Shown here: positions 1,342 to 29,427 of the stretch, piece by piece
Layout of the letters: every line of letters begins with the position of its first letter
How positions within the stretch are numbered: the first letter of the stretch is position 1
Source of the DNA: Gemmatimonadota bacterium
GTDB lineage: Bacteria; Gemmatimonadota; Gemmatimonadetes; Palauibacterales; KS3-K002
Assembly (NCBI GenBank): GCA_039589155.1
Contig: JBDHHX010000002.1
Location: 1 to 40,358, forward strand
Direction: 5' to 3'
DNA length: 40,358 bases
The notes under the pieces: generated by a model
What the model saw: only the letters and a program-made list of their open reading frames with translations
What the model was told of the DNA's origin: nothing
Databases searched by the model: none
Position numbers and translations under genes: made by a program

Positions 1342-3318
1342 ATGCCGTACCTACGGCTCGTCGACCTACGCACTGGCTCGGCACTCGACTTCGATGCCGG
1401 TGAAGTACGCATCGGTCGCGATCCGCAGCTCGAGCTCACCATCTCCGGTTCCGGGGCCGAAGTCGTTTCCAGTCATCACGCGCGCTTCGTCTACCGCCAC
1501 CGCCGCTGGTGGATCGAGGACACCGACAGCCGCAACGGTACCTTTATCGGCGAACGCCGCCTGAGCCCGGGCGAGCAGGAGGCGGTCGCCCCCGGCAGTT
1601 GCGTTCGCTTCGGCAAGACAGGACCGCAGGTCAAGGTCGAAGCCGCGTCCAGCAAGCCGATGGACGCTACTCGGCTCGAGCGCGGCGACGATGCACCGCA
1701 ACAGCCGCCGACCCCTGTGCCCGACCCGCCGCCCGCTGAACCTGCGCACGCCGCCGTCATCAAGATCGTCCTTCAGGATGCCCGGGATGGTGAGCGGTAC
1801 GAGGCGGAAGCCGCAAGCATTCGCATAGGACGGGGACACGACTGCGAGGTCAGGCCGCTCTCCCACGACTACGAGTTGGTATCCCGAGTCCACGCCGAGA
1901 TCCTGCTGGAGCATGGCGGCCTCGTCGTTGTCCGCGATGCCGACAGCGTCAACGGCACCTTCCTGAACGGCGAGTTTCTCGAAACGCCCCGCGAGCTCCA
2001 GGAGGGAGACCAGATCGCGCTCGGCGAGGAAGCTCCGGTGCTCTTCGTTCGTAAATTGTCGGTCGGCTTGCCGGGTAAGGGAATCACGACGCTGATCGTT
2101 CGCCGCGTCGCCGAGGAAGTTTCGCGGGCAAGCGCACTGCGTCTCCGCAGGGTCGTTTGGTTCTTCGTCGCCTTGCTGGCCGTGGTCACAAGTGGCGTAT
2201 TCATGCTGAGCGAGAAGCGCGACCGCGAGACGGCGGCGGCGCTGGAATCGCAGCGGCAAGAACTGGAGCAACAAAGGCAGGTGCTGGACGATTACCGCAG
2301 CGCTCTGGCCGCGCAACAGGCGACCACCGACTCGATTCTGTGGGCGGCGACGGCGGAGAACGAGCGGTTGAGGAGCGAGTTGATGGCGGCGGTCGAGAGC
2401 TCGGCGCCTACCGCCGTGGTCGACAGCCTGCGCGACGCAGTGATCGCCGCCGACCGACGCACCCAGGCGGTGGAAGCCTCGCTCGCCCGCTCGCAGGCGG
2501 CGCTGACCCGCCAACTGGCGGCTGGTGACTCGCTACGCCGCGAAGCCTCCGCCGAAGTATCGCGACTGCGGTCAGAGCTGGAACAGGCGCGGGGAACACA
2601 GCTTTCCGCCGCTCTGGCCGACAGCCTGCGACAGGCCATTCAGGAAGCGGAGCAGCAGGCGGCCGACATCGGCGCCCAACTACGTGCGGTCAGCGGCGTC
2701 AACCTGGCGGCGCTGGCTCAGGCGAACCAGGACGCCGTCGGTCTGGTCACCGTCTTCCAGGGTCTCAATCTGTTTGATGGAACCGGCTTCGTCATCACGT
2801 CGTCCGGCTACTTCGTCACCAACCGTCACGTGGCGCAGCCCGACCTCAAGGACGCCGATTCCGTCTTCATCACCATGGCCGACGAGCGCTTCATGATCCC
2901 GGCCGAGGTGATCGCCATCGCCGGCGCCGGCCAACCCGACCTGGCCCTGCTCAAGATCCTAGATTACAGCGGACCTCATATCGAGGACGTTGATTGGGCC
3001 GGCGTTCGCGCCATGCAGGGCGAGCCCGCCGCGCTGATCGGGTTTCCCGCCGGGTTGGGTGCCGCGCTCGACCAGACACGCACCGTCCGCACGTCGATGA
3101 GTGCCGGAATATTTAGCAAGGTGACCGGTGAGCTGGTTCAGTTCGACGGCTTCACCGTCGAGGGGTCCAGCGGCAGCCCGGTCTTTAACGCCAGCGGTGA
3201 AGTCGTTGCCGTTCATCGGGGCAGCCTGCGTGGATCCAGCGGCCTGGGTTTCGGCGTTCCTATCAAGAAGCTGATCGATTTGCTGCCGCCCGAGGCAAGA
3301 GCGGAGCTTGGCATATAA
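1342..3318 (+). CDS. FHA-FHA / single TM / long coiled coil / trypsin-like (S1, DegP/HtrA-type fold) serine protease fusion protein
   Basis: There are two FHA-like cores (IGRD..SSHHARF..DSRNGTF and IGRG..VSRVHAEI..DSVNGTF) separated by a Pro-rich linker. A hydrophobic helix (VVWFFVALLAVVTSGVFML) follows, then an A/Q/E/R/L-rich heptad-like region of about 200 aa. The C-terminal protease carries a His (TNRHV), Asp (PDLALLKI) and Ser (GSSGSPVF) triad. Confidence 0.85.
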   Translation: MPYLRLVDLRTGSALDFDAGEVRIGRDPQLELTISGSGAEVVSSHHARFVYRHRRWWIEDTDSRNGTFIGERRLSPGEQEAVAPGSCVRFGKTGPQVKVEAASSKPMDATRLERGDDAPQQPPTPVPDPPPAEPAHAAVIKIVLQDARDGERYEAEAASIRIGRGHDCEVRPLSHDYELVSRVHAEILLEHGGLVVVRDADSVNGTFLNGEFLETPRELQEGDQIALGEEAPVLFVRKLSVGLPGKGITTLIVRRVAEEVSRASALRLRRVVWFFVALLAVVTSGVFMLSEKRDRETAAALESQRQELEQQRQVLDDYRSALAAQQATTDSILWAATAENERLRSELMAAVESSAPTAVVDSLRDAVIAADRRTQAVEASLARSQAALTRQLAAGDSLRREASAEVSRLRSELEQARGTQLSAALADSLRQAIQEAEQQAADIGAQLRAVSGVNLAALAQANQDAVGLVTVFQGLNLFDGTGFVITSSGYFVTNRHVAQPDLKDADSVFITMADERFMIPAEVIAIAGAGQPDLALLKILDYSGPHIEDVDWAGVRAMQGEPAALIGFPAGLGAALDQTRTVRTSMSAGIFSKVTGELVQFDGFTVEGSSGSPVFNASGEVVAVHRGSLRGSSGLGFGVPIKKLIDLLPPEARAELGI

Positions 3319-6405: not shown

Positions 6406-7521
6406 ATGAAGAAGCAGGGACTCGATACACCCGCCCTTATCGTCGATTCGGGCACTCTCCGTCGCAACATCGAGTGGATGCAAAAGGTCGCCAACGGGTT
6501 TGGCGCCCGCTTACGCCCGCATACGAAGACACACAAGTCGCCGCACATCGCTCGACGCCAGATGGAAGCGGGCGCCAGCGGCGTCACGGTGGCGAAGGTC
6601 GGAGAAGCGCAGGTGATGGCTGATGCCGGGCTCGAGGACATCCTCATCGCCAACCAGGTGGTCGGTACGGCAAAGGTCCGCAGGCTCATCGATCTCGCGG
6701 CTCGCGTCCGCGTCGCCGTCCTCGTGGACAGCGCAGCTGGCGTCGAGATGCTGGAGAACGCGTTCGCCCAGGCCGGTGGCGAGCTCGACGTTCTCATCGA
6801 GGTAGACACGGGGAAGGGTCGTTGCGGGCTTTCGGACACCGAGCAGATCCTTGCCCTGGCGGATGAAGTGGAGCGAGCAGAGCATCTGCGGCTGCGTGGA
6901 GTCGAGACGCACGAGGGGCATGTGGCGGACGGAGCGACGAACGCGAAGCAGATCGAGGAGCGTGCGGTGGCCGCGGGAGAGCGCGTCGTCGAGGTTGCGG
7001 AAGCGCTGCGCCAGCGTGGGCACGCTGTGGAAGAAGTCAGCGTCGGATCCACGCCGGCGGCGCCGTACACCGCGTCGGTTCCCGGTATCACCGAGATGCG
7101 GCCCGGCACGTACGTCTTCAACGACGTGAACGAGATGGCACTCGGTCAGGCGTCGGCGGAGGAATGCGCGCTCAGTATTCTGGCAACGGTGATCAGCCGG
7201 CCCGTGCCCGCGCGGGCCGTGCTCGATGCCGGGAGCAAGTCGCTCTTCGCCGAGCGAGCCCGCAGCGGATTCGCGCTGGAGGGGTACGAGGGCTTCGGGT
7301 ACATCCGGGGGGCGCCCACTGCCAGGTTGGTCAGTCTGAGCGAGGAGCACGCCGTGGTGGAGCTACCCGCAGGATCGGAGTTCCCGGGCGTCGGCGGCGT
7401 GGTGGAGATCATACCGAACCACGTCTGTCCGGCGGTCAACCTGCACGAGGAGCTGCACATCGTTGATGGCGATGATCTGCTGGAGGTCTGGCCGATCGCC
7501 GCTCGCGGAAAGGTGCGCTAA
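6406..7521 (+). CDS. D-TA family PLP-dependent enzyme (D-threonine aldolase / D-serine dehydratase-like, alanine-racemase N-terminal fold)
   Basis: It carries the PLP-lysine motif RPHTKTHKSP characteristic of the DSD1/D-TA family, an alanine-racemase-like TIM-barrel pattern and the C-terminal IIPNHVC motif. Confidence 0.75.
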   Translation: MKKQGLDTPALIVDSGTLRRNIEWMQKVANGFGARLRPHTKTHKSPHIARRQMEAGASGVTVAKVGEAQVMADAGLEDILIANQVVGTAKVRRLIDLAARVRVAVLVDSAAGVEMLENAFAQAGGELDVLIEVDTGKGRCGLSDTEQILALADEVERAEHLRLRGVETHEGHVADGATNAKQIEERAVAAGERVVEVAEALRQRGHAVEEVSVGSTPAAPYTASVPGITEMRPGTYVFNDVNEMALGQASAEECALSILATVISRPVPARAVLDAGSKSLFAERARSGFALEGYEGFGYIRGAPTARLVSLSEEHAVVELPAGSEFPGVGGVVEIIPNHVCPAVNLHEELHIVDGDDLLEVWPIAARGKVR

Positions 7522-7528
7522 CCCGGCA

Positions 7529-8995
7529 TCAGTTGCGCGGCGCGCCTCCGACGATCCGTTTGAGCATGGTTCCAGCCGGTATCGTCGCTCCCTCCTCCAC
7601 GCCGTTGATGATCGCCAGAGTGGTGAGCGATATCGGTGAAGGGTAGCGTTCCGCGAATCGCTCGATCGTCATGGCGCGATTGATTCTCAACGTCTCGACC
7701 CGCATGGCCTCCACGCCAAGCACGGCCGGGTCGGTCACGCGGTCGAAGCTGCCCAGCGAACGCTGGAACACCTGGTCGTACTGCTGCAGTTTCTCCAGCG
7801 TCGTGTACCCGAGAAGCTGGAAGACCAGGCCCTTATATCTCACCCAGACGCCTAGACCGGCGAGCTGCGCGTCCTGCGTCTGTGCCACGAAGTAAGTTGA
7901 CCGTGCCGGAAGACCGTTCAACCGCGAGTTCGATACAGAGCCGCGCGGCCTGATTATCGAATCCGCCAGGAAGGCCTCGACCGCCTCGCGCGGCGTCTCC
8001 GCATCGGACAGCGTGAGCTGGACGATGGCATCGTTCTCCGGGCTGACGCCGGCCACGACCTGCTTCGTGTTCTGGGTTTGCCACTGCTTGGGGAACTCGA
8101 GCTGGAACGCCAGGTCGGGGTGCAAGAAGAGCTGACCCTCGAAGTAGCCTTCGCGCGGGTTCTGACCGAAGACCAGGCCATCGATTCGCTCTAGGTAGCG
8201 ACCGCGACCGACTTCGCCGGTGATCTCTACCCCGGTGCTCTCCAGCGAGTCGAGCGCCGCGTGCATGCGGGCGACCCGCTCGCCCGGGTCGGGGTGAGTC
8301 GACAGCCAGCCGGGCAGCGAGCTGCCGCCAGCCGCCTCGCTCACCCGGTCCAGCATGGTGAAAACGTCCACCGCCTCGCGCGGATTGTACTCGGCGCGGC
8401 CCATGTAGCGAAAACCGAGGTCGTCGGACTGACGCTCGTCGTCGCGCCCGAACTTGAGGAACATCAGACCCAGCCCTTGGCCTAGCACGCCGCGGTACCT
8501 GGCGATGTCGGAGGAGAGCACCGCGCCGACCTCGAGGCCCATGCCGGCCAAAGAGGCCCGGCTCATCTGCTCCGCCGAATGCCGCGCCGTCACGTGCCCG
8601 ATCTCGTGACCCAGCACCGCCGCCATCTCCGCTTCGGAGGTGAAGTAGGTCAGGATTCCACGCGTCATGAAGATCTGGCCGCCCGGCAGCGCGAAAGCGT
8701 TGACGATCGGATCGTCGACGACCTTGAAATGCCATGGCAGGTCGGGCTTCTCCGACTGCGCTGCCAGCTTCTGGCCGACCTCGTCCACGTAGGCCTGGAG
8801 ATCGGCGTCGTCATAGAGGCCGTAGATCTGCTCGACCTGCTGTGCCCCCTGCAGGCCCATCTGGATCTCCTGCTGCTCGCTGATCATGATCAGCTGGCGC
8901 TCGCCGGTGGCGGGGTTCACGGGGCAGCCGACCAGGGTCAGGGAATAGGCCAGTATGGCAGGCACGAATAGCCGGTGCTTCGATTGGGTATTCAT
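7529..8995 (-). CDS. M48 family zinc metalloprotease, lipoprotein (BepA/Ste24-like) with LysM-like C-terminus
   Basis: It has the HEIGH zinc motif (LGHEIGHVTARH). I chose the internal ATG at 8995 (MNTQSKHRLFVPAILAYSLTLVGC), which gives a signal peptide with a lipobox. The ORF is open to 9058, but that extension runs into GGGGAATTC repeat DNA. Confidence 0.85.
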   Translation of the reverse strand: MNTQSKHRLFVPAILAYSLTLVGCPVNPATGERQLIMISEQQEIQMGLQGAQQVEQIYGLYDDADLQAYVDEVGQKLAAQSEKPDLPWHFKVVDDPIVNAFALPGGQIFMTRGILTYFTSEAEMAAVLGHEIGHVTARHSAEQMSRASLAGMGLEVGAVLSSDIARYRGVLGQGLGLMFLKFGRDDERQSDDLGFRYMGRAEYNPREAVDVFTMLDRVSEAAGGSSLPGWLSTHPDPGERVARMHAALDSLESTGVEITGEVGRGRYLERIDGLVFGQNPREGYFEGQLFLHPDLAFQLEFPKQWQTQNTKQVVAGVSPENDAIVQLTLSDAETPREAVEAFLADSIIRPRGSVSNSRLNGLPARSTYFVAQTQDAQLAGLGVWVRYKGLVFQLLGYTTLEKLQQYDQVFQRSLGSFDRVTDPAVLGVEAMRVETLRINRAMTIERFAERYPSPISLTTLAIINGVEEGATIPAGTMLKRIVGGAPRN

Positions 8996-9072
8996 AAGTA
9001 GACGGGGCTTGGGGAATTCGGGTCTCGGACCTCTAATTGTGAGGGTAGTAAGGGGCAACTATCAAGTGGCTT

Positions 9073-9190
9073 GGGAATTCTCGAATAGGATTCAGCGAAT
9101 CGGGGATTCGGGGAATTCGGGAAGGCCGAGCGCCGTCACTTTCGTGATTCCCCAACTCCCCGACTCCCCGAGTCAGCTTCGAGAATTCCC
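9073..9190. repeat. Imperfect palindrome built from TCGGGGA(T/A)T words (divergent intergenic region, M48 / TM2)
   Basis: The outer arms are perfect 13-mers: gggaattctcgaa (9073-9085) and ttcgagaattccc (9178-9190). The inner arms tcggggattcggggaat (9100-9116) and attccccaactccccga (9147-9163) match at 15/17. A further ggggaattcggg copy lies at about 9011-9022. Confidence 0.85.
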
Positions 9191-9348
9191 GGCCCACCTT
9201 GAGCAGGCCGGCTGAGGGGTATAGCTTGAATGGCCCCTCCCATCCTCTGAAACCTCGGACGGCTGGATCCTCGTCATTGATGGTAGGAGCGGGCCGCGCG
9301 CGCGCCCCCGGGACCGGGCGGCCGCGCTAAACCACACGGCGGGCGGGC

Positions 9349-9837
9349 ATGGAGCAAGGCGAGAAGAAATTTAAGGAGGGCATAGCCTACGGGCTGTGGG
9401 CGGGCTGGTTGTTTGGCTTCGCCGGCCTCCACCGCCTGTATCTGGGCAAATGGGGCACGGGCTTTCTGTGGCTCTTCACCTGGGGGCTGTTCGGTGTGGG
9501 CCAGGTCGTCGACCTGATCACCCTGCGTCGCCAGGTGGAAGAGGCTAACCTGCTGGACGAGGTCCGGGCGATGAAGTCCAGCGGCAGCCACGGGAGACCG
9601 ACGCCCGAGCAGATGCTGCTTCGAGCCGCCATGAAAGAGGGCGGCAAGCTCACCGTCACCCAGGCCGCCATGATCACCGGGTTCTCCTTCGCCGAGGCTG
9701 AGGAGCTGCTGCGCGAGATGTGCAGGAGCGGCTATGTCGACGTGGGGAACGAGCCGGAGAGCGGCGTCATCGTCTACTATTTCCCGGAACTCAGAGGCCG
9801 GCGCCAACTCGGAGAGACCGACGCCCCCTACGGTTGA
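9349..9837 (+). CDS. TM2 domain-containing membrane protein with C-terminal winged-helix-like domain
   Basis: It shows the TM2 signature of two helices with a conserved motif (AYGLWAGWLFGFAGLHRLYLGKWGTGFLWLFTWGLFGVGQVVDLI). The soluble C-terminal part is about 80 aa. Confidence 0.75.
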   Translation: MEQGEKKFKEGIAYGLWAGWLFGFAGLHRLYLGKWGTGFLWLFTWGLFGVGQVVDLITLRRQVEEANLLDEVRAMKSSGSHGRPTPEQMLLRAAMKEGGKLTVTQAAMITGFSFAEAEELLREMCRSGYVDVGNEPESGVIVYYFPELRGRRQLGETDAPYG

Positions 9838-15930: not shown

Positions 15931-17406
15931 ATGATGCCTCAGCCGCTACCCAGGACGCTTGGAGAGCTGAAGAAGTCCGGCTACTGTCCGCGTTCCGTGA
16001 AGGAGGAGATGCGGACCAACCTCATCGGAAAGCTCGAGGCCGGCGACGAGCTGTTCCCTGGCATTCTCGGTTACGAGGATTCCGTCGTGCCGCAATTGGT
16101 GAACGCCGTGCTGGCGCGTCACAACTTCATCCTGCTCGGGCTTCGCGGACAGGCGAAGAGCCGAATCCTGCGAGACCTGGTTCAGTTCCTGGATGAGACG
16201 ATCCCGATCATCGCCGGTTCGGAGGTGAATGACGACCCGTTCCACCCAATCAGCAAGCACGGGCGACTCACGGTGGAGGAGAATGGCGACGACACACCGC
16301 TCGACTGGGTGCCACGTGAGCAGCGATACGTAGAGAAACTGGCCACGCCGGACGTGACCATCGCCGACATAATCGGCGACCTCGATCCGATCCGCGCCGC
16401 GCGCGGCGGCCACGTCCTCTCTGACGAGCTGACCATCCACTACGGATTACTGCCTCGGGCGAACCGCGGGATCTTCGCCGTGAACGAGCTGCCTGACCTT
16501 GCGGGCAAGATCCAGGTCGGCCTCTTCAACATCATGCAGGAGGGCGACGTCCAGATTAAGGGCTATCCCATCCGGCTTGCCCTCGACGCGCTCCTGGTAT
16601 TCACCGCCAACCCGGAGGACTACACGGCCCGCGGCAAGATCATCACTCCGCTCAAGGACCGGATCGGCGCCGAGATCATGACCCACTACCCGGAGGAGCT
16701 CGAATACGGGATCCAGATCACCGAGCAGGAGGCGTGGATCGAACGCAGCGAGCGACCCATCCAGGTCCCGCGGATGATCAAGGAGATCGTCGAGCGCGTC
16801 GCCTTCGAGGCCCGGGAAGATCAGCGGGTCGACCGTCGCTCAGGCGTCTCGCAGCGCCTGCCCATCTCGGTTATGGAGAGCGTCGTCTCCAACGCCGAGC
16901 GCCGGGCGATCGCCAACGGCGAGGCGCTGGTCGTGCCCTGGGTATCTGACATCTACGCATCACTTCCAGCCATCACAGGCAAGCTCGAGCTCGAGTACGA
17001 GGGCGAGCTGGAAGGCGGCGGAAAGATCGCCCGCGACTTGATCTCCAGAGCCGCAGGCGCCACGTTCGACGAGTATTTCGTCGAAGAAGACGCGATGCCC
17101 GTCGTCGAGTACTTCGACACGGGTGGCGCGCTCCAGGTCGCCGAGCTCTCCAGCGCCGAGGCTTGTCTCAAGGGTTTTGGCACCGTGCCCGGGCTGGTCG
17201 AACTCGCCAAGACTGCCGCGCCCGCCGAGCCCGGTATCGACGACAGCTCCGGTCTCGTCGTCGCCAGCGAGGTCGTCCTCGAGGGCTTGGTCGCCAAGCG
17301 GAAGATCAGCCGCAGCGAGGCCGGCAGCTATTCGCGCGGCAGAGATCGCCCGCGGCCCTCGCAGGGCGGTGGGCCGGGAGGCTCCAATTGGCCACACGAG
17401 ATATAA
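15931..17406 (+). CDS. ChlI/MoxR-like AAA+ ATPase (Mg-chelatase subunit-I-like family, often annotated sigma-54-interaction-domain protein)
   Basis: An AAGGTGA Shine-Dalgarno sequence lies upstream. It has a Walker A-like motif (LLGLRGQAKS), a Walker B region (GIFAVNELPDL) and an N-terminal PRTLGELKKSGY..SVKEEMR motif that I recall from this family. Confidence 0.75.
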   Translation: MMPQPLPRTLGELKKSGYCPRSVKEEMRTNLIGKLEAGDELFPGILGYEDSVVPQLVNAVLARHNFILLGLRGQAKSRILRDLVQFLDETIPIIAGSEVNDDPFHPISKHGRLTVEENGDDTPLDWVPREQRYVEKLATPDVTIADIIGDLDPIRAARGGHVLSDELTIHYGLLPRANRGIFAVNELPDLAGKIQVGLFNIMQEGDVQIKGYPIRLALDALLVFTANPEDYTARGKIITPLKDRIGAEIMTHYPEELEYGIQITEQEAWIERSERPIQVPRMIKEIVERVAFEAREDQRVDRRSGVSQRLPISVMESVVSNAERRAIANGEALVVPWVSDIYASLPAITGKLELEYEGELEGGGKIARDLISRAAGATFDEYFVEEDAMPVVEYFDTGGALQVAELSSAEACLKGFGTVPGLVELAKTAAPAEPGIDDSSGLVVASEVVLEGLVAKRKISRSEAGSYSRGRDRPRPSQGGGPGGSNWPHEI

Positions 17407-18506: not shown

Positions 18507-21134
18507 ATGGCCGGGCCGGAAGCCTCGTCACGTCCCCGGACGAGCCGAAGGAGAACGGGCCTGCTGCGGCGGCAGGCCGCGCTGCTGCGTCTCAGCACGG
18601 CGATCGGGAGTGCCGAGACGGAGGGCACGATCTGCGGGGCCGTGGTGGACGGTCTGTACGACGAGGCGTTGGGCTACGATTTCGTGGCGCTGTTGTTGGT
18701 GGACGAGGCGACGGGCGAGCGTGTGGTAGTGGCGAGCGTGGGTTGGGCGGACGCTCCGGAAGGCCTGCGAGTGCAGCCGGGCCGGGGGTTGAGCGAGCGG
18801 CCGCTGCTGGACGGTCGCCTTCACTACACGGCGGAGGTGACTCAGGATACCCGCTACCTGCCGACGCGGAACGAGGGCTCGGAAGTCGACGTGCCGATTC
18901 AAATCAACAACGAGCTGGTCGGTGTCCTGGTCGTCGAGAGCAACCGCCCGGATGCGTTCGGGCCGGACGACTTCGAGATCCTGAGGGCGGCCGCCAACCA
19001 GGCTGGGATCGCCATCGGTCGGGCGCGGCTGCTGGCGGCGGAGCGCGAGCGGGCCGACGAGCAAGAGGCGTTGTTGGCCACGCTGGCCGACCTATCGGCG
19101 CAGCTCGAGCTGTCCACGCTGCTGCAGGCGGTGTTGGACCGGGCGGTCGCGCTGCTACGTGTGAGCCACGGTGAACTGGCGATCTACGAACCGGAGCGCG
19201 AGGAGTTGGTGATTGTCGCCAGCCACAACGTCGGCAAGCAGGACACCACTGGCACGCGCCTGGCCGTGGGCGAAGGGGCCATGGGACAGGTGGCGCGGAC
19301 CAGGGAACCGCTGCTCATCCCGAACTACCGGGAGTGGTCGGGCCGCTCGGCGCAGTACGAGCAGGTCGAGTTCCATGCCGTGATGGTCGCCCCCCTGATG
19401 ATGGGCGGCCAGCTGGTGGGCGCCATCGCCGTGATGGACAAGCACGCGGACCGCGAGTTCGGTGGCGTCGACTTGCGGCGGCTGACGATGTTCGCGCCCC
19501 AGGCGGCGGTGGCCATCGAGAACGCGAGACTGTTCGACGCCGAGCGCCGTCGTGCGGAAGAGCAGAAGGCGTTGCTCGACACGATGAAGGATCTGTCCGG
19601 CGAGCTGGAGCTCTCGAAGGTCCTCCACGGCGTGCTGGAGCGTGCGGTATCCTTGCTGAGCGTCACCGGCGGCGAGCTGGCCACGTTCGACGAGTTGGCC
19701 CGCGACCTGGTCATCGTCGCCAGCCACAACATGGGGACGAACGCGGTGGGTCAGCGGATGGCGCTCGGCGAAGGCGCCATGGGCCACGTGGCCGAGAGCC
19801 GCGAGGCGCTGATCATCCCGCGCTACCAGGAATGGCTGGGTCGGTCGGCGAAGTACACCCAGGACACGGTCCAGACGGTGATGGTGGCGCCGCTGATGAT
19901 CGGCAGCCGTTTGGTGGGCGCGATCGCCGCGGTGCACTCCGACCCGTCACGGGAGTTCGGGTCGGAGGAATTACGGTTGCTGCAGCTCTTCGCGCCGCAG
20001 GCCGCCATCGCCATCGAGAACGCGCGCCTCTACACGGCGGCCCGCCAGCAGAAGCAGTACTTCGAGGAGCTGGTGCGCAACAGCCCGGTGGCGATCGTCA
20101 CGCTCGACACGGATCACAATGCCGTCTCCTGCAACCCGGCCTTCGAGAAACTCTACGGCTACAAGCAGGAGGAAGTGGTCGGCCGCAACCTTGACGACCT
20201 GATCACGACCGAGGCCACGAGGCTGGAGGCCGTCACCTACACGGAGATGGCGCTCGAGCACCGTACGGTCAACGTGATCAGCCAGCGGCGTCGGAAGGAC
20301 GGGAGCTTCGTCGATGTCGAGGTGCTCGGTGTACCCGTCGTCGTTGACGGGCAACGACTCGGTCTGATGGCGCTCTATCACGACATCACCGAGCTGCTGG
20401 AGGCGCGTCGCGATGCCGAGGCGGCCAACAGCGCAAAGAGCCAGTTCCTCGCCAGCATGAGCCACGAGCTGCGCACTCCGCTCAACGCGATCCTCGGCTA
20501 TAGCGAGATGCTCGTGGAAGACGCGGAAGACAAGGGCCAGCCGAAGTTCGTGCCCGATCTGCAGAAAATCCACTCTGCCGGCAGCCACCTGCTGACGCTG
20601 ATCAACGACGTCCTTGACCTGTCGAAGATCGAGGCCGGCAAGATGGAGCTTACGCCGGAAACGTTCGACGTGAAGGCGACCATCGACGAAGTCGCGACCA
20701 CGGTCCGGCCGCTCGTCGAGCGGAACGCGAACGAACTGGTCGTCCGCCGTGACGGCGAGTTGGGCGACATGTACTCCGACCTGACCCGTACCCGGCAGGT
20801 GCTGCTCAACCTGCTGTCGAACGCCGCAAAGTTCACCGAGAACGGGACCATCACGCTGACGGCGCAACGCACGCAAGGCAACGACGGTGGCGAGGTGGTC
20901 GTGTTCAGCGTCAGCGACACGGGGATCGGCATGACGCCGGAGCAAGCGGCGAAACTGTTCGAGCCCTTTTCTCAGGCGGAAGCGACGACCGCCAACAAGT
21001 ATGGAGGTACCGGGCTCGGCCTGGCGATATCGCGCAGCTTCTGCCGGATGATGGGCGGCGAGGTCAGCCTTGAAAGCGAGGCCGGCGTTGGCTCCACCTT
21101 CACCGTTCGGTTGCCGACGGCAGTACCGAACTAG
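18507..21134 (+). CDS. Soluble sensor histidine kinase: GAF(A)-GAF(B)x2-PAS-HisKA-HATPase_c
   Basis: A GAGGT Shine-Dalgarno sequence lies 6 nt upstream. It has three GAF-like modules, a PAS domain ([20 protein letters not shown]), an H-box ([18 protein letters not shown]), an N-box ([12 protein letters not shown]), G1 (DTGIGM) and G2 ([11 protein letters not shown]). No hydrophobic helices are present. Confidence 0.9.
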
Positions 21135-27094
<5,960 letters not shown>

Positions 27095-27121
27095 AACCTG
27101 ATAGTCGGGAGTCGAGAAACG

Positions 27122-27487
27122 ATGTCAAAGATTCTCCTGGTCGAGGACAATGAGATGAACCGCGACATGCTGTCGCGACGACTCGAGCGGAAGGGCTACG
27201 AGGTCACCATGGCGATCGATGGTCGCGAAGGGGTCGAGATGGCCCAGGCCGGTGGCTACGATCTCATCCTGATGGACATGAGCCTACCGGAGATCGATGG
27301 CTGGGAGGCGACTCGCCAGCTACGCGCCGTAGCCGAGACCGAGAGCGTACCGATCATAGCACTCACCGCGCACGCGATGGCCGGCGACCGTGAGAAGGCG
27401 CTGGAGGCGGGCTGCGACGACTACGACACCAAGCCGATCGAACTGGAGCGGTTGCTCTCCAAGATGGAGGCTCTGCTGAACAAGTGA
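27122..27487 (+). CDS. Single-domain response regulator (CheY-like receiver)
   Basis: The protein is 121 aa. It has KILLVEDNEMN, a phospho-acceptor context (LILMDMSLPEIDG), LTAHA and a conserved Lys (DYDTKP). Confidence 0.9.
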   Translation: MSKILLVEDNEMNRDMLSRRLERKGYEVTMAIDGREGVEMAQAGGYDLILMDMSLPEIDGWEATRQLRAVAETESVPIIALTAHAMAGDREKALEAGCDDYDTKPIELERLLSKMEALLNK

Positions 27488-29427
27488 CAGCCAACGACTC
27501 GAAGTTGACGCCGGAAGAAATCGCAGGGCTGCGGCACGATCTGCGCACGCCGATCAATCACATCGTCGGTTACGCGCAGATGTTGCTTGAAGACATACCG
27601 GACACGGATCAGGCCGGGCATCGCGACGCACTCGAGCAGACGCTGGTGGTGGCGAAGGGCGCGCTCGATCTCATCAACAGCACACTCGCTGGGAGCGCCA
27701 ACGGGATCGCGACGGGTGAGCTCATCTCGTTGTACGATGCACTCCGCGAGCCGCAGAAGAGAATCGTCGACAGCGTCGCCCCGCTGCTGGCCAGCACCGC
27801 GGCCAGCGAGGAGGAGCTGGTCGGCGACCTGCGCCGCATCCTCACAGCGGCGGAGAAGCTGGTTCCGGAAGAAGGCGCGGAAGCTGGAGAGGCGGGTCCC
27901 GACGCTGACACGCATGCGGGCACGGGTCTGGCCGATGAGACCGAAGGCTCGGAGACGGGGCCGGCCCGGGTCCTGGTGGTCGACGATGTTGAAGCGAACC
28001 GCGATCTGCTGCGCAGACGCCTGGAGCGCGAGGGCCACGCCGTCGAGTGCGCCGAGAACGGTGGGCGGGCGCTGGAGACGATCAGGAAGCGCCCGTTCGA
28101 CCTTGTGCTGCTTGACGTGATGATGCCGGAGATCGACGGCTACGAGGTGTTGGGCCAGCTGAAAGACGACCCGGCTACCCGTGACATACCGGTGATCATG
28201 ATATCGGCGCTGGACGACATGGAGAGCGTCGTTCGCTGCATCGAGGCCGGGGCCGAAGACTACCTGCCCAAACCGTTCGACCCGGTCCTGCTGCGCGCCC
28301 GGATAAACGCCTCGCTCGAAAAGAAGCGGCTGCGTGACCATGAAGTAGAGTACCTGCGCCAGGTCGATCGGGTGATCGAAGCGGCTAGCGCCGTGGAGGC
28401 GGGTAACTACGAAGCGGGAGCGCTGGCCGACGTCGGCGCCCGCGACGACCAGCTGGGCAAGCTGGCCCGCGTGTTCGACGGTATGGTGGCCGAGGTACGG
28501 GCGCGGGAGCGACGGCTCACGGACCAGGTGCGCGACCTCAAGGCCGAGATCGATGCGGCCCGCCGCGCGACACGTCCCTCGGACGAGCCCGGTCTCGACT
28601 TCGCCAGTCTGTCGATCGGCGAGCGGTTCGCCGACCGCTACGAGATCGAGGGCGCCATCGGCGGCGGCGGCATGGGGATGGTCTACCGGGCGCGGGACCT
28701 GGAGCTGGACGAAGAGATCGCCATCAAGACGTTGCGGCCGGAGCTTGTCAGCGACGCCGCGCTGGTCGAACGTTTCAAGACGGAGATCAGGCTGGCTCGC
28801 AAGATCTCGCATCGAAACGTCGTCCGTACCCACGACTTCGGCGAATGCTCGGGCGTCTATTACCTGACCATGGAATTCGTGGAGGGGATCACGCTGCGCG
28901 AGCTGATCGATAGCCGCGGGCAGATCGGAGTCTCGTCCACGCTGGCAATCGGCAGCCAGCTGGCCGAATCGATGGAGGTCGCCCACGAGCAGGGTGTGGT
29001 CCATCGCGACATCAAGCCGCAGAACCTGCTGCTCGATGCCGACGGCGTGCTTAAGGTGATGGACTTCGGCGTCGCGCGACTGGCCGAGCGCACCAGCTCG
29101 TTGACCGAGGCGGGACTGATTGTGGGAACGCCGGCCTACATGTCGCCGGAGCAGCTACTCGCCGAAGCAACCGAAGCGAGCAGCGACCTCTACGCCGCTG
29201 GCGTCGTCCTCTACGAATGCCTGACGGGGAGGCTCCCCTTCGAGGCCGAGTCGACGGTCTCGCTCATCGGCAAAGTGCTCAACCTGCAGCCCTCTCCGCC
29301 GGCCGAGATCAACGCCGACATCGCGCCCGCGCTGTCGACGCTCATTCTCGAACTGCTCGCCAAGAGGCCGGAGGAGCGTTTGGGCAGTGCGAAGGAGTTA
29401 CGCGAACGGCTGTCGCAGATCGGTTAG
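27484..29427 (+). CDS. Fusion protein: HisKA-like H-box domain (no ATPase domain) - REC - helical linker - Ser/Thr protein kinase
   Basis: A GTGA overlap couples it to the CheY gene. The N-terminal H-box (LRHDLRTPINHIVGYAQML) has no N/G1/G2 boxes after it. The receiver shows VLVVDDVEAN..VLLDVMMPEIDG..LPKP. A helical linker follows (LGKLARVFDGMVAEVRARERRL). The Hanks kinase motifs are present: GGGGMGMVY, IAIKTL, HRDIKPQN, DFGVAR and GTPAYMSPEQ. Confidence 0.9.
   Translation: MTANDSKLTPEEIAGLRHDLRTPINHIVGYAQMLLEDIPDTDQAGHRDALEQTLVVAKGALDLINSTLAGSANGIATGELISLYDALREPQKRIVDSVAPLLASTAASEEELVGDLRRILTAAEKLVPEEGAEAGEAGPDADTHAGTGLADETEGSETGPARVLVVDDVEANRDLLRRRLEREGHAVECAENGGRALETIRKRPFDLVLLDVMMPEIDGYEVLGQLKDDPATRDIPVIMISALDDMESVVRCIEAGAEDYLPKPFDPVLLRARINASLEKKRLRDHEVEYLRQVDRVIEAASAVEAGNYEAGALADVGARDDQLGKLARVFDGMVAEVRARERRLTDQVRDLKAEIDAARRATRPSDEPGLDFASLSIGERFADRYEIEGAIGGGGMGMVYRARDLELDEEIAIKTLRPELVSDAALVERFKTEIRLARKISHRNVVRTHDFGECSGVYYLTMEFVEGITLRELIDSRGQIGVSSTLAIGSQLAESMEVAHEQGVVHRDIKPQNLLLDADGVLKVMDFGVARLAERTSSLTEAGLIVGTPAYMSPEQLLAEATEASSDLYAAGVVLYECLTGRLPFEAESTVSLIGKVLNLQPSPPAEINADIAPALSTLILELLAKRPEERLGSAKELRERLSQIG

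Follow-up and report, generated by a model that had tools for sequence, protein, structure and literature searches.

How could a group of soluble histidine kinases pass on its signals when the only enzymatic output encoded beside it is a Hanks-type Ser/Thr kinase? The question is raised by five adjacent genes, P1 to P5, at positions 18507-29427 of a 40,358-nucleotide stretch of DNA from a Gemmatimonadota bacterium (assembly GCA_039589155.1, contig JBDHHX010000002.1, positions 1 to 40,358), the whole of which is referred to here as the window. We propose, giving the idea about an even chance, that the five genes work as one signalling operon and carry out a four-step His-Asp-His-Asp phosphorelay with several inputs and with Ser/Thr phosphorylation as its output. 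All relay elements were recognized by sequence with intact sites, namely kinase histidines (H1), a first receiver aspartate (D1), a second histidine in a domain lacking an ATPase (H2) and a terminal aspartate in a receiver fused to the output (D2), and because P5 carries a HisKA domain without an ATPase, it probably supplies the second histidine of such a relay, with the small receiver P4 as the shuttle. A preliminary description of the locus had likewise read it as a multi-input phosphorelay converting His-Asp signalling into Ser/Thr phosphorylation, and as far as sequence can tell this reading is supported, the catalytic residues being intact and nearly invariant in the P5 family.

The five genes are long open reading frames (ORFs) on the + strand, with the same coordinates as in the preliminary description, and their third-position GC (0.81-0.88) matches that of the other genes of the window (about 65% GC overall) and is typical of coding sequence. 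P1 (18507-21134, +, 875 amino acids (aa)) encodes a soluble sensor histidine kinase (HK) with the Pfam order GAF(N-type)-GAF-GAF-PAS-HisKA(H653)-HATPase_c; P2 (21135-24959, +, 1274 aa) a soluble hybrid kinase with four GAF modules followed by PAS-HisKA(H780)-HATPase_c-REC1(D1076)-REC2(D1196); and P3 (24956-27094, +, 712 aa) a soluble kinase with the order GAF(N-type)-GAF-PAS-HisKA(H480)-HATPase_c. P4 (27122-27487, +, 121 aa) is a single-domain receiver in which Pfam recognized REC only, and P5 (27484-29427, +, 647 aa), the proposed terminal response regulator, combines a HisKA-type domain, REC, a probable HAMP and a Hanks-type Ser/Thr kinase according to Pfam and a structural model. Read from the sequence, the junctions are TAG immediately followed by ATG between P1 and P2 (0 nt), an ATGA overlap between P2 and P3, 27 nt between P3 and P4, and a GTGA overlap between P4 and P5, exactly as previously described for these five same-strand genes. 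A convergent gene overlaps the stop codon of P5, so the unit ends there. The Pfam assignments also bore out the earlier domain counts, including at least four phospho-acceptor histidines (H653, H780, H480 and H18) and four receivers (D1076, D1196, D52 and D211) with complete active sites, as well as the claim that the Ser/Thr kinase is the only output, since no DNA-binding, cyclase or chemotaxis domain was found by Pfam in the five proteins. Three points were absent from that description: that P5 probably has a HAMP domain, that the three kinases are paralogues, and that the operon belongs to a wider cross-phylum relay cassette.

On the input side, HisKA and HATPase_c scored above the Pfam cut-offs in P1, P2 and P3, the N, G1, F and G2 boxes were all there, and in the hybrid P2 the kinase core and two Response_reg stretches lie in one polypeptide. 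The three proteins are paralogous, 54-63% identical over their whole length (P1 vs P2 63%, P1 vs P3 57%), and their GAF modules fall into two types, one N-terminal (47-61% identical between proteins) and one repeated (59-83% identical between copies); these identities, together with the kinase paralogy, suggest that the arrays grew by recent duplication of genes and modules. The two to four GAF modules and single PAS domain per kinase noted earlier correspond to three, four and two GAF in P1, P2 and P3, with one PAS each. The first GAF of P2 (21135-21600) is truncated, only its last ~47 residues matching GAF profiles, while the N-terminal GAF is complete in P1 and P3. The highest 19-residue Kyte-Doolittle mean (1.93) sits inside a beta-strand motif repeated in every GAF module and hence does not mark a membrane helix, which agrees with soluble proteins and with the earlier view that the kinases lack a hydrophobic segment and sense cytoplasmic ligands. 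The nearest solved GAF domains were weak matches (E 1e-8 or weaker: cGMP phosphodiesterase, HD-GYP, PtsP, CyaB2 and DevS), and no ligand was assignable from them.

P4 had been described as a CheY. It is indeed a single-domain receiver, but not a CheY orthologue: hybrid-kinase receivers, PleD REC1 and DivK are the solved structures closest to it (E = 1e-24 for DivK), with CheY ranking far below, and no che genes occur in the window or in three related loci from other genomes (L001-L003), so a role as CheY or chemotaxis regulator was rejected. Residues E8/D9, D52, T82 and K104 were invariant in nine orthologues, and with 66-92% identity across orthologues P4 is the best-conserved component of the operon. 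The FATGUY motif is absent from P4, which has ALTAHAMAGD. Because the literature gives no general sequence rule that separates relay from terminal receivers, the nearest solved relatives were used instead; these are relay or DHp-binding receivers, which supports a relay role for P4 as the proposed phosphoryl shuttle (D1). The closest solved receiver is 7c1j, which we take to be the receiver of PA1611, a hybrid kinase of the Pseudomonas aeruginosa HptB-HsbR-HsbA network.

P5 begins with a four-helix domain (residues 10-126, positions 27511-27861, +) that carries a HisKA H-box (LRHDLRTPINHIVGY, His18) without an ATP-binding domain and is proposed to hold the second histidine (H2). HisKA reached 32.9 bits against a Pfam cut-off of 26.9, and no Pfam match to HATPase_c was found in P5. 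In the AlphaFold model (mean predicted local distance difference test score (pLDDT) 79), helices spanning residues 10-37 (carrying His18), 44-69, 77-104 and 110-126 are followed by a disordered linker (130-157) and then by the receiver, with no CA-like alpha/beta domain between helices and receiver, the module being fused to the regulator. Given the missing HATPase_c match and this order of helices, disordered linker and receiver, P5 would be unable to charge its own histidine. Modelled alone, the N-terminal 135 residues formed a compact four-helix unit (pLDDT 90.9, predicted template modelling score 0.83) that aligns in sequence, through the H-box, to the DHp domains of HK853 and ShkA. Pfam gave no Hpt match (PF01627) in P5, and no Hpt entry was among the best 50 of a fold search, which returned only generic four-helix bundles (best E about 0.08) and did not split an Hpt-like monomer from a DHp dimer. 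Judged by sequence and model, the domain looks like a histidine phosphotransfer module; it would belong to HisKA rather than to the Hpt or Spo0B/ChpT families, and may work like Hpt, its likeness to Spo0B and ChpT being one of function.

The receiver of P5 (residues 163-274, 27970-28305, +; Response_reg, E = 1.6e-30), with D167/D168, D211, S241 and K263 as active-site residues that do not vary in the family, is the proposed terminal acceptor (D2). In the model its helix alpha5 runs into HAMP helices (267-306 and 323-361) and from there into the kinase, and the HAMP domain (residues ~290-350, 28351-28533, +) is continuous with that helix. Against Pfam HAMP (PF00672) the P5 linker scored 18.2 bits, below the 25-bit cut-off; several P5-family members carry precomputed PF00672 matches, and two related proteins from the wider cassette described below (L108 and L152) scored 28.8 and 32.7 bits. 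From its sequence relationships, including homology to the canonical HAMP of a sister family of membrane receptor kinases, we judge that the linker is most likely a true HAMP. The C-terminal kinase domain (residues 386-637, 28639-29394, +; Pkinase, E = 8.5e-52) has a GGGGMG Gly loop (393-398), K415, alphaC E434, H507-R508-D509, N514, D527-F528-G529, activation-loop T541 and SPE (554-556), motifs that show no variation in the family alignment; by all motif criteria it is an ordinary Hanks-type kinase, an RD kinase with a conserved activation-loop Thr. PknB-type kinases are activated through dimer geometry and loop autophosphorylation, and by analogy activation of the P5 kinase would involve both.

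The sister family (L010-L017) comprises the closest non-orthologous relatives of the P5 kinase domain among the matches listed, from Gemmatimonadales, Acidobacteriota, Thermoanaerobaculia and Vicinamibacteria, with the layout transmembrane segment, ~300-aa periplasmic domain, transmembrane segment, canonical HAMP and kinase. Their HAMP and kinase module is homologous to P5 residues ~292-647 (42-53% identity), whereas a periplasmic sensor input takes the place where P5 has its relay domain and receiver. Since the HAMP-kinase part is common to both, P5 looks like a HAMP-kinase output whose membrane sensor has been replaced, and the layout of the sister family suggests that the coupling of HAMP to the Ser/Thr kinase is ancestral.

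With residues and gene order as observed, the signal would travel as follows. With its GAF array and PAS domain, each of P1, P2 and P3 would detect a ligand or state inside the cell and autophosphorylate on the H-box histidine (H1). They would then charge Asp52 of P4 (D1), which would act as a common shuttle in the manner of Spo0F or MrrA. Phosphorylated P4 would pass the phosphoryl group to His18 in the ATPase-less HisKA-type bundle of P5 (H2), a built-in phosphotransferase like Spo0B, ChpT or PhyK, and His18 would hand it on to Asp211 of P5's own receiver (D2). From there the signal would be transmitted via helix alpha5 and the HAMP coiled coil to a dimeric Hanks-type kinase domain, whose activity towards substrates would be switched. 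The two receivers of P2 could open a further way for phosphate to reach His18, or could drain it as a sink, and as an alternative D1 or a sink they make it probable that the relay is branched. Work on EnvZ and by Skerker has reportedly established which helix positions set docking specificity. The helix-1 positions His+7, +11 and +12 are N, G and Y in P1, P2, P3 and P5 alike, which fits all four H-box helices docking the same receiver.

If this arrangement reflects a working unit, it should recur where the flanking genes differ. The preliminary description had proposed a comparison of gene neighbourhoods outside this genome, and the arrangement was found again in Gemmatimonadota with unrelated flanks and on many metagenomic contigs. 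Loci were mapped with domain probes in three genomes with different flanks (L001-L003) and in at least six GTDB species representatives found by a profile scan with the full P5 alignment (L004-L009). The order in these Gemmatimonadota loci is an optional GAFn-PAS-HK-REC-REC gene, a GAF-GAF-PAS-HK gene, a receiver of 121-126 aa and a HisKA-REC-HAMP-kinase gene, and in L001-L009 a 4-nt overlap joins the receiver gene to the kinase gene in every case where both were called. The number of kinases per locus ranges from one (L003, L009) to three (the window). L001, L002, L005, L006 and L008 have an HK-REC-REC gene upstream of the small receiver. P3 is the kinase that most constantly adjoins the receiver in Gemmatimonadota operons: in L001-L003, L005, L006, L008 and L009 the gene directly before the receiver encodes a P3 orthologue of about 714 aa. 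P1 is an extra paralogue that the other Gemmatimonadota loci examined do not have. A kinase, a small receiver and a HisKA-REC-output protein follow one another in this core order between unrelated flanks even where identity falls to about 50%. In L003 the P3 orthologue (7460-9636) changes frame within the PAS domain and was called as two genes, a 440-aa sensor and a 271-aa kinase core; the break may reflect a truly split kinase, a frameshift or a mistake in the assembly.

P5 itself has more than 100 clusters (at 90% identity) of full-length homologues with 60-84% identity and the same architecture, and all the named ones are Gemmatimonadota. An exhaustive search of 1.84 billion cluster representatives gave about seven that match P5 end to end, so the complete architecture marks a narrow family; further "two-stretch" matches beyond about 10 family clusters, first taken as REC-plus-kinase proteins, were rejected because Pfam shows them to be tandem double kinases. 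Across 120 P5 homologues at 60-99% identity, His18 with the H-box, D167/D168, D211, K263, the HAMP core, K415, HRD, N514, DFG and T541 were invariant or nearly so.

We then compared the presence of a P4-type receiver with the state of the H-box among P5 relatives. In the most divergent ones (48-58% identity), P0123, P0125 and P0127 keep the H-box and have a P4-type receiver immediately upstream with a 4-nt overlap, P0126 (His to Gln) and P0137 (no His) are orphan genes with neither receiver nor kinase nearby, and P0129, with a degraded H-box, directly follows a hybrid kinase whose receiver has a FATGUY-like motif. A P4-type receiver thus stands immediately upstream of 13/13 genes whose H-box is intact and whose upstream region could be read (the window, L001-L009, P0123, P0125 and P0127), compared with 0/3 genes in which the H-box is degraded or lost. 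This co-occurrence goes in the direction that transfer from P4 to His18 would predict.

The same front end was also found with other outputs. A metagenome scan with the P4-orthologue alignment gave 80 loci (L089-L168) whose P4-type receivers are 69-86% identical to that of the window. The gene after the receiver was readable in 74 of them; at least 55 of these genes open with the H-box LRH[DE]LRTP.N.I.GY, 38 of the 55 overlapping the receiver gene by 4 nt. Among 45 downstream receiver-containing proteins of at least 250 aa, 39 have an H-box in front of the receiver with no ATPase between (L136, whose H-box the sequence pattern missed, is included). The outputs of 35 complete cassette proteins were a class III cyclase (15), a HAMP-Ser/Thr kinase (7), PP2C (SpoIIE, 6), a complete second histidine kinase (4), short HAMP-terminated forms (2) and a sigma-54 activator (1); L131, another Ser/Thr-kinase form, has a variant H-box that the pattern missed and lacks a HAMP match, and it stands outside this count. 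Because such varied outputs follow the same front, H-box plus REC can be read as an input module, and the window operon as the Ser/Thr-kinase member of a modular cross-phylum relay cassette. A kinase ending in two receivers lies immediately upstream of the small receiver in 41/80 loci, and multi-GAF arrays are frequent. The cyclase version is 95% identical to proteins from Burkholderiales metagenome-assembled genomes and also occurs in Steroidobacteraceae and other Gammaproteobacteria, where the proteins are annotated merely as "response regulator" or "adenylate cyclase". In a Burkholderiales-like cyclase cassette (L156) the receiver is 71% identical to P4 of the window; such cross-phylum identity, unusually high for a receiver, suggests that many interactions constrain the protein at once or that the cassette has spread laterally. 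Tentatively, and with slightly less than an even chance in our estimate, these loci would represent a widespread, unrecognised plug-in cassette: a multi-GAF hybrid kinase with two receivers, a shuttle receiver (~70% identical even between phyla) and an ATPase-less HisKA phosphotransferase fused before a terminal receiver, with at least five outputs, the Gemmatimonadota version being the first defined bacterial pathway in which a eukaryote-like Ser/Thr kinase is under the direct control of a His-Asp relay.

Some cassette loci depart from the common form. The GAF arrays of the hybrid kinases are very variable (L156 1-5600, L162 and L090), with up to six GAF matches in L156, and L090 has three kinases in a row, as in the window; the copy number of GAF modules and kinases seems to evolve quickly. 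L108 (2974-4227) encodes a 417-aa protein with two consecutive HisKA H-boxes, a receiver and HAMP and no output domain, and L152 a similar HisKA-REC-HAMP protein of 347 aa; both may be adaptors or truncated forms. In L128 (1288-1728) the P4-type receiver is followed, with a 4-nt overlap, not by an H-box-REC protein but by a 146-aa RsbW-like anti-sigma Ser kinase (HATPase_c_2), which may be a direct link from receiver to partner-switch module.

Several points weigh against a four-step relay. The main comparative one is that 6/45 of the downstream receiver proteins lack an H-box yet stand behind a P4-type receiver (L123, L127, L142, L160, L134 and L151); they are mostly REC-cyclases, and cases such as L123, L142 and L160 indicate that P4 does not strictly need an adjacent H2 domain. 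The correlation between H-box and P4 comprises few, phylogenetically non-independent cases, the single-chain prediction of a monomeric P5 bundle may hide a DHp-type dimer, and the hybrid kinase's own receivers could be the real D1, P4 then being a sink or modulator. Promoter, terminator and Rfam scans of the window gave no readable signal and no Rfam family, and as the GC-rich genome yielded no usable promoter or terminator signal, co-transcription is deduced from gene spacing alone. The conserved H-box is itself ambiguous: HisKA phosphatases also use a conserved H-[E/D]-x-x-T, which leaves room for a phosphatase role. The histidine, in turn, is indispensable for phosphotransfer, whereas HisKA phosphatase activity does not strictly need it (PMC12632262), and for this reason the invariance of His18 favours transfer. 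These considerations bear most directly on the one rival that we regard as serious, although we think it rather unlikely, namely a two-step pathway in which the kinases phosphorylate D211 of P5 directly, P4 is a sink or competitor, and the HisKA-like domain of P5 is a phosphatase (for phosphorylated P4 or its own receiver) or a dimerisation or docking module. The H-box-less proteins behind a P4-type receiver would suit it, as would the helical N-terminus that P0126 and P0137 keep without a histidine, which indicates some His-independent function of the domain, the His-independence of HisKA phosphatase activity (PMC12632262) and the documented LovK-LovR phosphate sink in the MrrA network (PMC5964349). 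It sits poorly, however, with His18 and the whole H-box being invariant in 120 family members and with the H-box in 39/45 cassettes with other outputs; the members that have lost the histidine have also lost P4 and the kinases, and a sink leaves it unexplained that, of the partners of P5, P4 is the one most conserved and coupled to it in translation.

A related, distinctly improbable alternative resembles DivK and DivL: phosphorylated P4 would bind the P5 bundle and alter its conformation without transfer, in parallel to direct phosphorylation of D211. There is a documented precedent for a kinase that has been repurposed to read whether a receiver is phosphorylated (PMC4211667). DivK is among the closest solved relatives of P4 (E = 1e-24), and the conserved 4-nt coupling suggests a stoichiometric complex. 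In DivL, however, the histidine is replaced by Tyr, unlike the P5 family, in which His and H-[D/E]-x-R-T-P are invariant, and binding alone would not require that. We consider it very improbable that the genes have no dedicated wiring, tandem GAF-kinase duplication having merely occurred beside an unrelated receiver-kinase gene, with the kinases targeting regulators encoded elsewhere. The recent paralogy of P1-P3, the change in kinase number from one to three between genomes and the lack of a P1 counterpart in the other loci examined would be expected under such a scheme, but not the core order retained at about 50% identity between unrelated flanks, the same order in other phyla with other outputs, or the conserved overlap of stop and start codons. 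Equally remote as a replacement for the relay is the reverse or feedback direction, in which the two-component part is the target, with the Ser/Thr kinase acting on the histidine kinases, on P4 or on its own receiver; it is not an exclusive rival, as it could coexist with the forward relay. Crosstalk from Ser/Thr kinase to response regulator is documented (PrkC to WalR, Stk1 to CovR; PMC6213207, PMC4478028). The receiver of P5, by contrast, lies N-terminal to HAMP and kinase, in the position of an input domain, where the sister family has its membrane sensor, and the same H-box-REC module precedes cyclase, PP2C and sigma-54 outputs.

The genes flanking the operon are unrelated and housekeeping in character (MutY, DapF, LapA, peptidases, an MFS transporter and lipopolysaccharide core genes). 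A 491-aa ORF (15931-17406, +) has coding-like composition and no Pfam match, and the ~1.1 kb between it and the start of P1, which holds no convincing gene, may contain the operon promoter region or an unrecognised small gene. A gene at 1342-3318 (+) encodes two FHA domains followed by a trypsin-like protease domain. As FHA domains read phospho-threonine, this protein could be a client of a Ser/Thr kinase; it was rejected as a P5 substrate because no such gene occurs near the operon in L001-L003.

How, then, does the locus compare with what is known? Bacterial Hanks-type kinases usually come under the control of extracellular or ligand-binding domains of their own. Signalling in Gemmatimonadota, which are abundant in soil, is, to our knowledge, almost unstudied. 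PrkC-WalR, Stk1-CovR and PknH-DosR resemble the operon in tying Hanks-type kinases to two-component proteins (PMC6213207, PMC4478028), but they run in the opposite direction, and none of those kinases is receiver-controlled; in the main review of bacterial Hanks kinases (PMC6213207) the only such link is from Ser/Thr kinase to response regulator, and a receiver domain is never mentioned. Our literature search found no characterised HisKA-REC-Pkinase protein or receiver-regulated Hanks kinase, in keeping with the preliminary description, which had recognized no characterised system, although most subscription-journal papers lay outside its coverage and the bare REC-kinase combination may be catalogued in response-regulator censuses. 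From sequence comparison, three features appear to be new: an output in the form of a receiver- and HAMP-gated Hanks kinase, an H2 in the form of a HisKA stripped of its ATPase and fused to the terminal regulator, and the recognition of a reusable cassette. If receiver phosphorylation controls the P5 kinase, the operon would define the opposite link, from His-Asp relay to Ser/Thr phosphorylation, in a tractable, soluble one-operon system for studying receiver and HAMP gating of a protein kinase, and the fused ATPase-less HisKA would be a new way to build the second histidine of a phosphorelay. Genome annotation labels such proteins "response regulator", "CheY-like" or "protein kinase"; since the same cassette drives cyclases, PP2C, sigma-54 activators and kinases in several phyla, understanding one member would help to annotate many, and the cassette would offer modular parts for synthetic signalling.

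Among established phosphorelays, the Spo0 relay of Bacillus subtilis sporulation runs from KinA-E through Spo0F and Spo0B to Spo0A. The proposed relay resembles it in that several kinases, some of them soluble with PAS domains, converge on a single-domain receiver, from which the signal passes to a kinase-inactive helical-bundle phosphotransferase and on to an output-fused receiver. It differs in that the P5 phosphotransferase is of the HisKA family, fused to the terminal regulator and without the C-terminal alpha/beta domain of Spo0B; in its output, a Hanks-type kinase behind HAMP rather than the DNA-binding output of Spo0A; and in having all parts in one operon and GAF arrays as sensors (Spo0F and Spo0B are mentioned in PMC9981736). 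In Caulobacter, MrrA is charged by at least six kinases and hands the phosphate to PhyK, the phosphotransferase to PhyR, with LovK-LovR as a sink in the network (PMC5964349); a single-domain hub, several kinases, a HisKA-type phosphotransferase before a terminal regulator and a sink branch all recall the present operon. PhyK, however, is a separate, full-length kinase-like protein, whereas the His module of P5 is ATPase-less and fused to the terminal receiver; MrrA has the FATGUY motif where P4 has ALTAHAMAGD; and the output there is a partner switch on a sigma factor instead of a Ser/Thr kinase. The CckA-ChpT-CtrA/CpdR pathway is similar in its hybrid-kinase receiver intermediate and its dimeric, DHp-like phosphotransferase resembling a histidine kinase (PMC9981736, PMC3433190). 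ChpT, in contrast, stands alone as a protein and retains a degenerate CA-like domain, and that pathway has one kinase input and no small shuttle receiver between kinase and phosphotransferase.

Two further systems come close to the output side. CyaC, a cyanobacterial adenylate cyclase with the order REC-HK-REC-cyclase, also places a His domain and a receiver before an enzymatic output that is activated by intramolecular His-to-Asp transfer, and the cyclase cassettes L100, L124 and L156 look like relatives of this logic. CyaC, however, has its own ATPase and autophosphorylates, unlike the HisKA-REC proteins of the cassette, which, lacking an ATPase, would have to be charged in trans. In the HptB-HsbR-HsbA system of P. 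aeruginosa and RsbK-RsbY of Bacillus cereus, a receiver-fused enzyme converts a His-Asp signal into a change in Ser/Thr phosphorylation, and PP2C-output cassettes (L111, L113 and L168) belong to the same wider cassette family as the present operon. In those partner switches one STAS protein is the common target of PP2C phosphatases and GHKL-type anti-sigma kinases, whereas here the His-Asp signal would be converted by a Hanks-type kinase.

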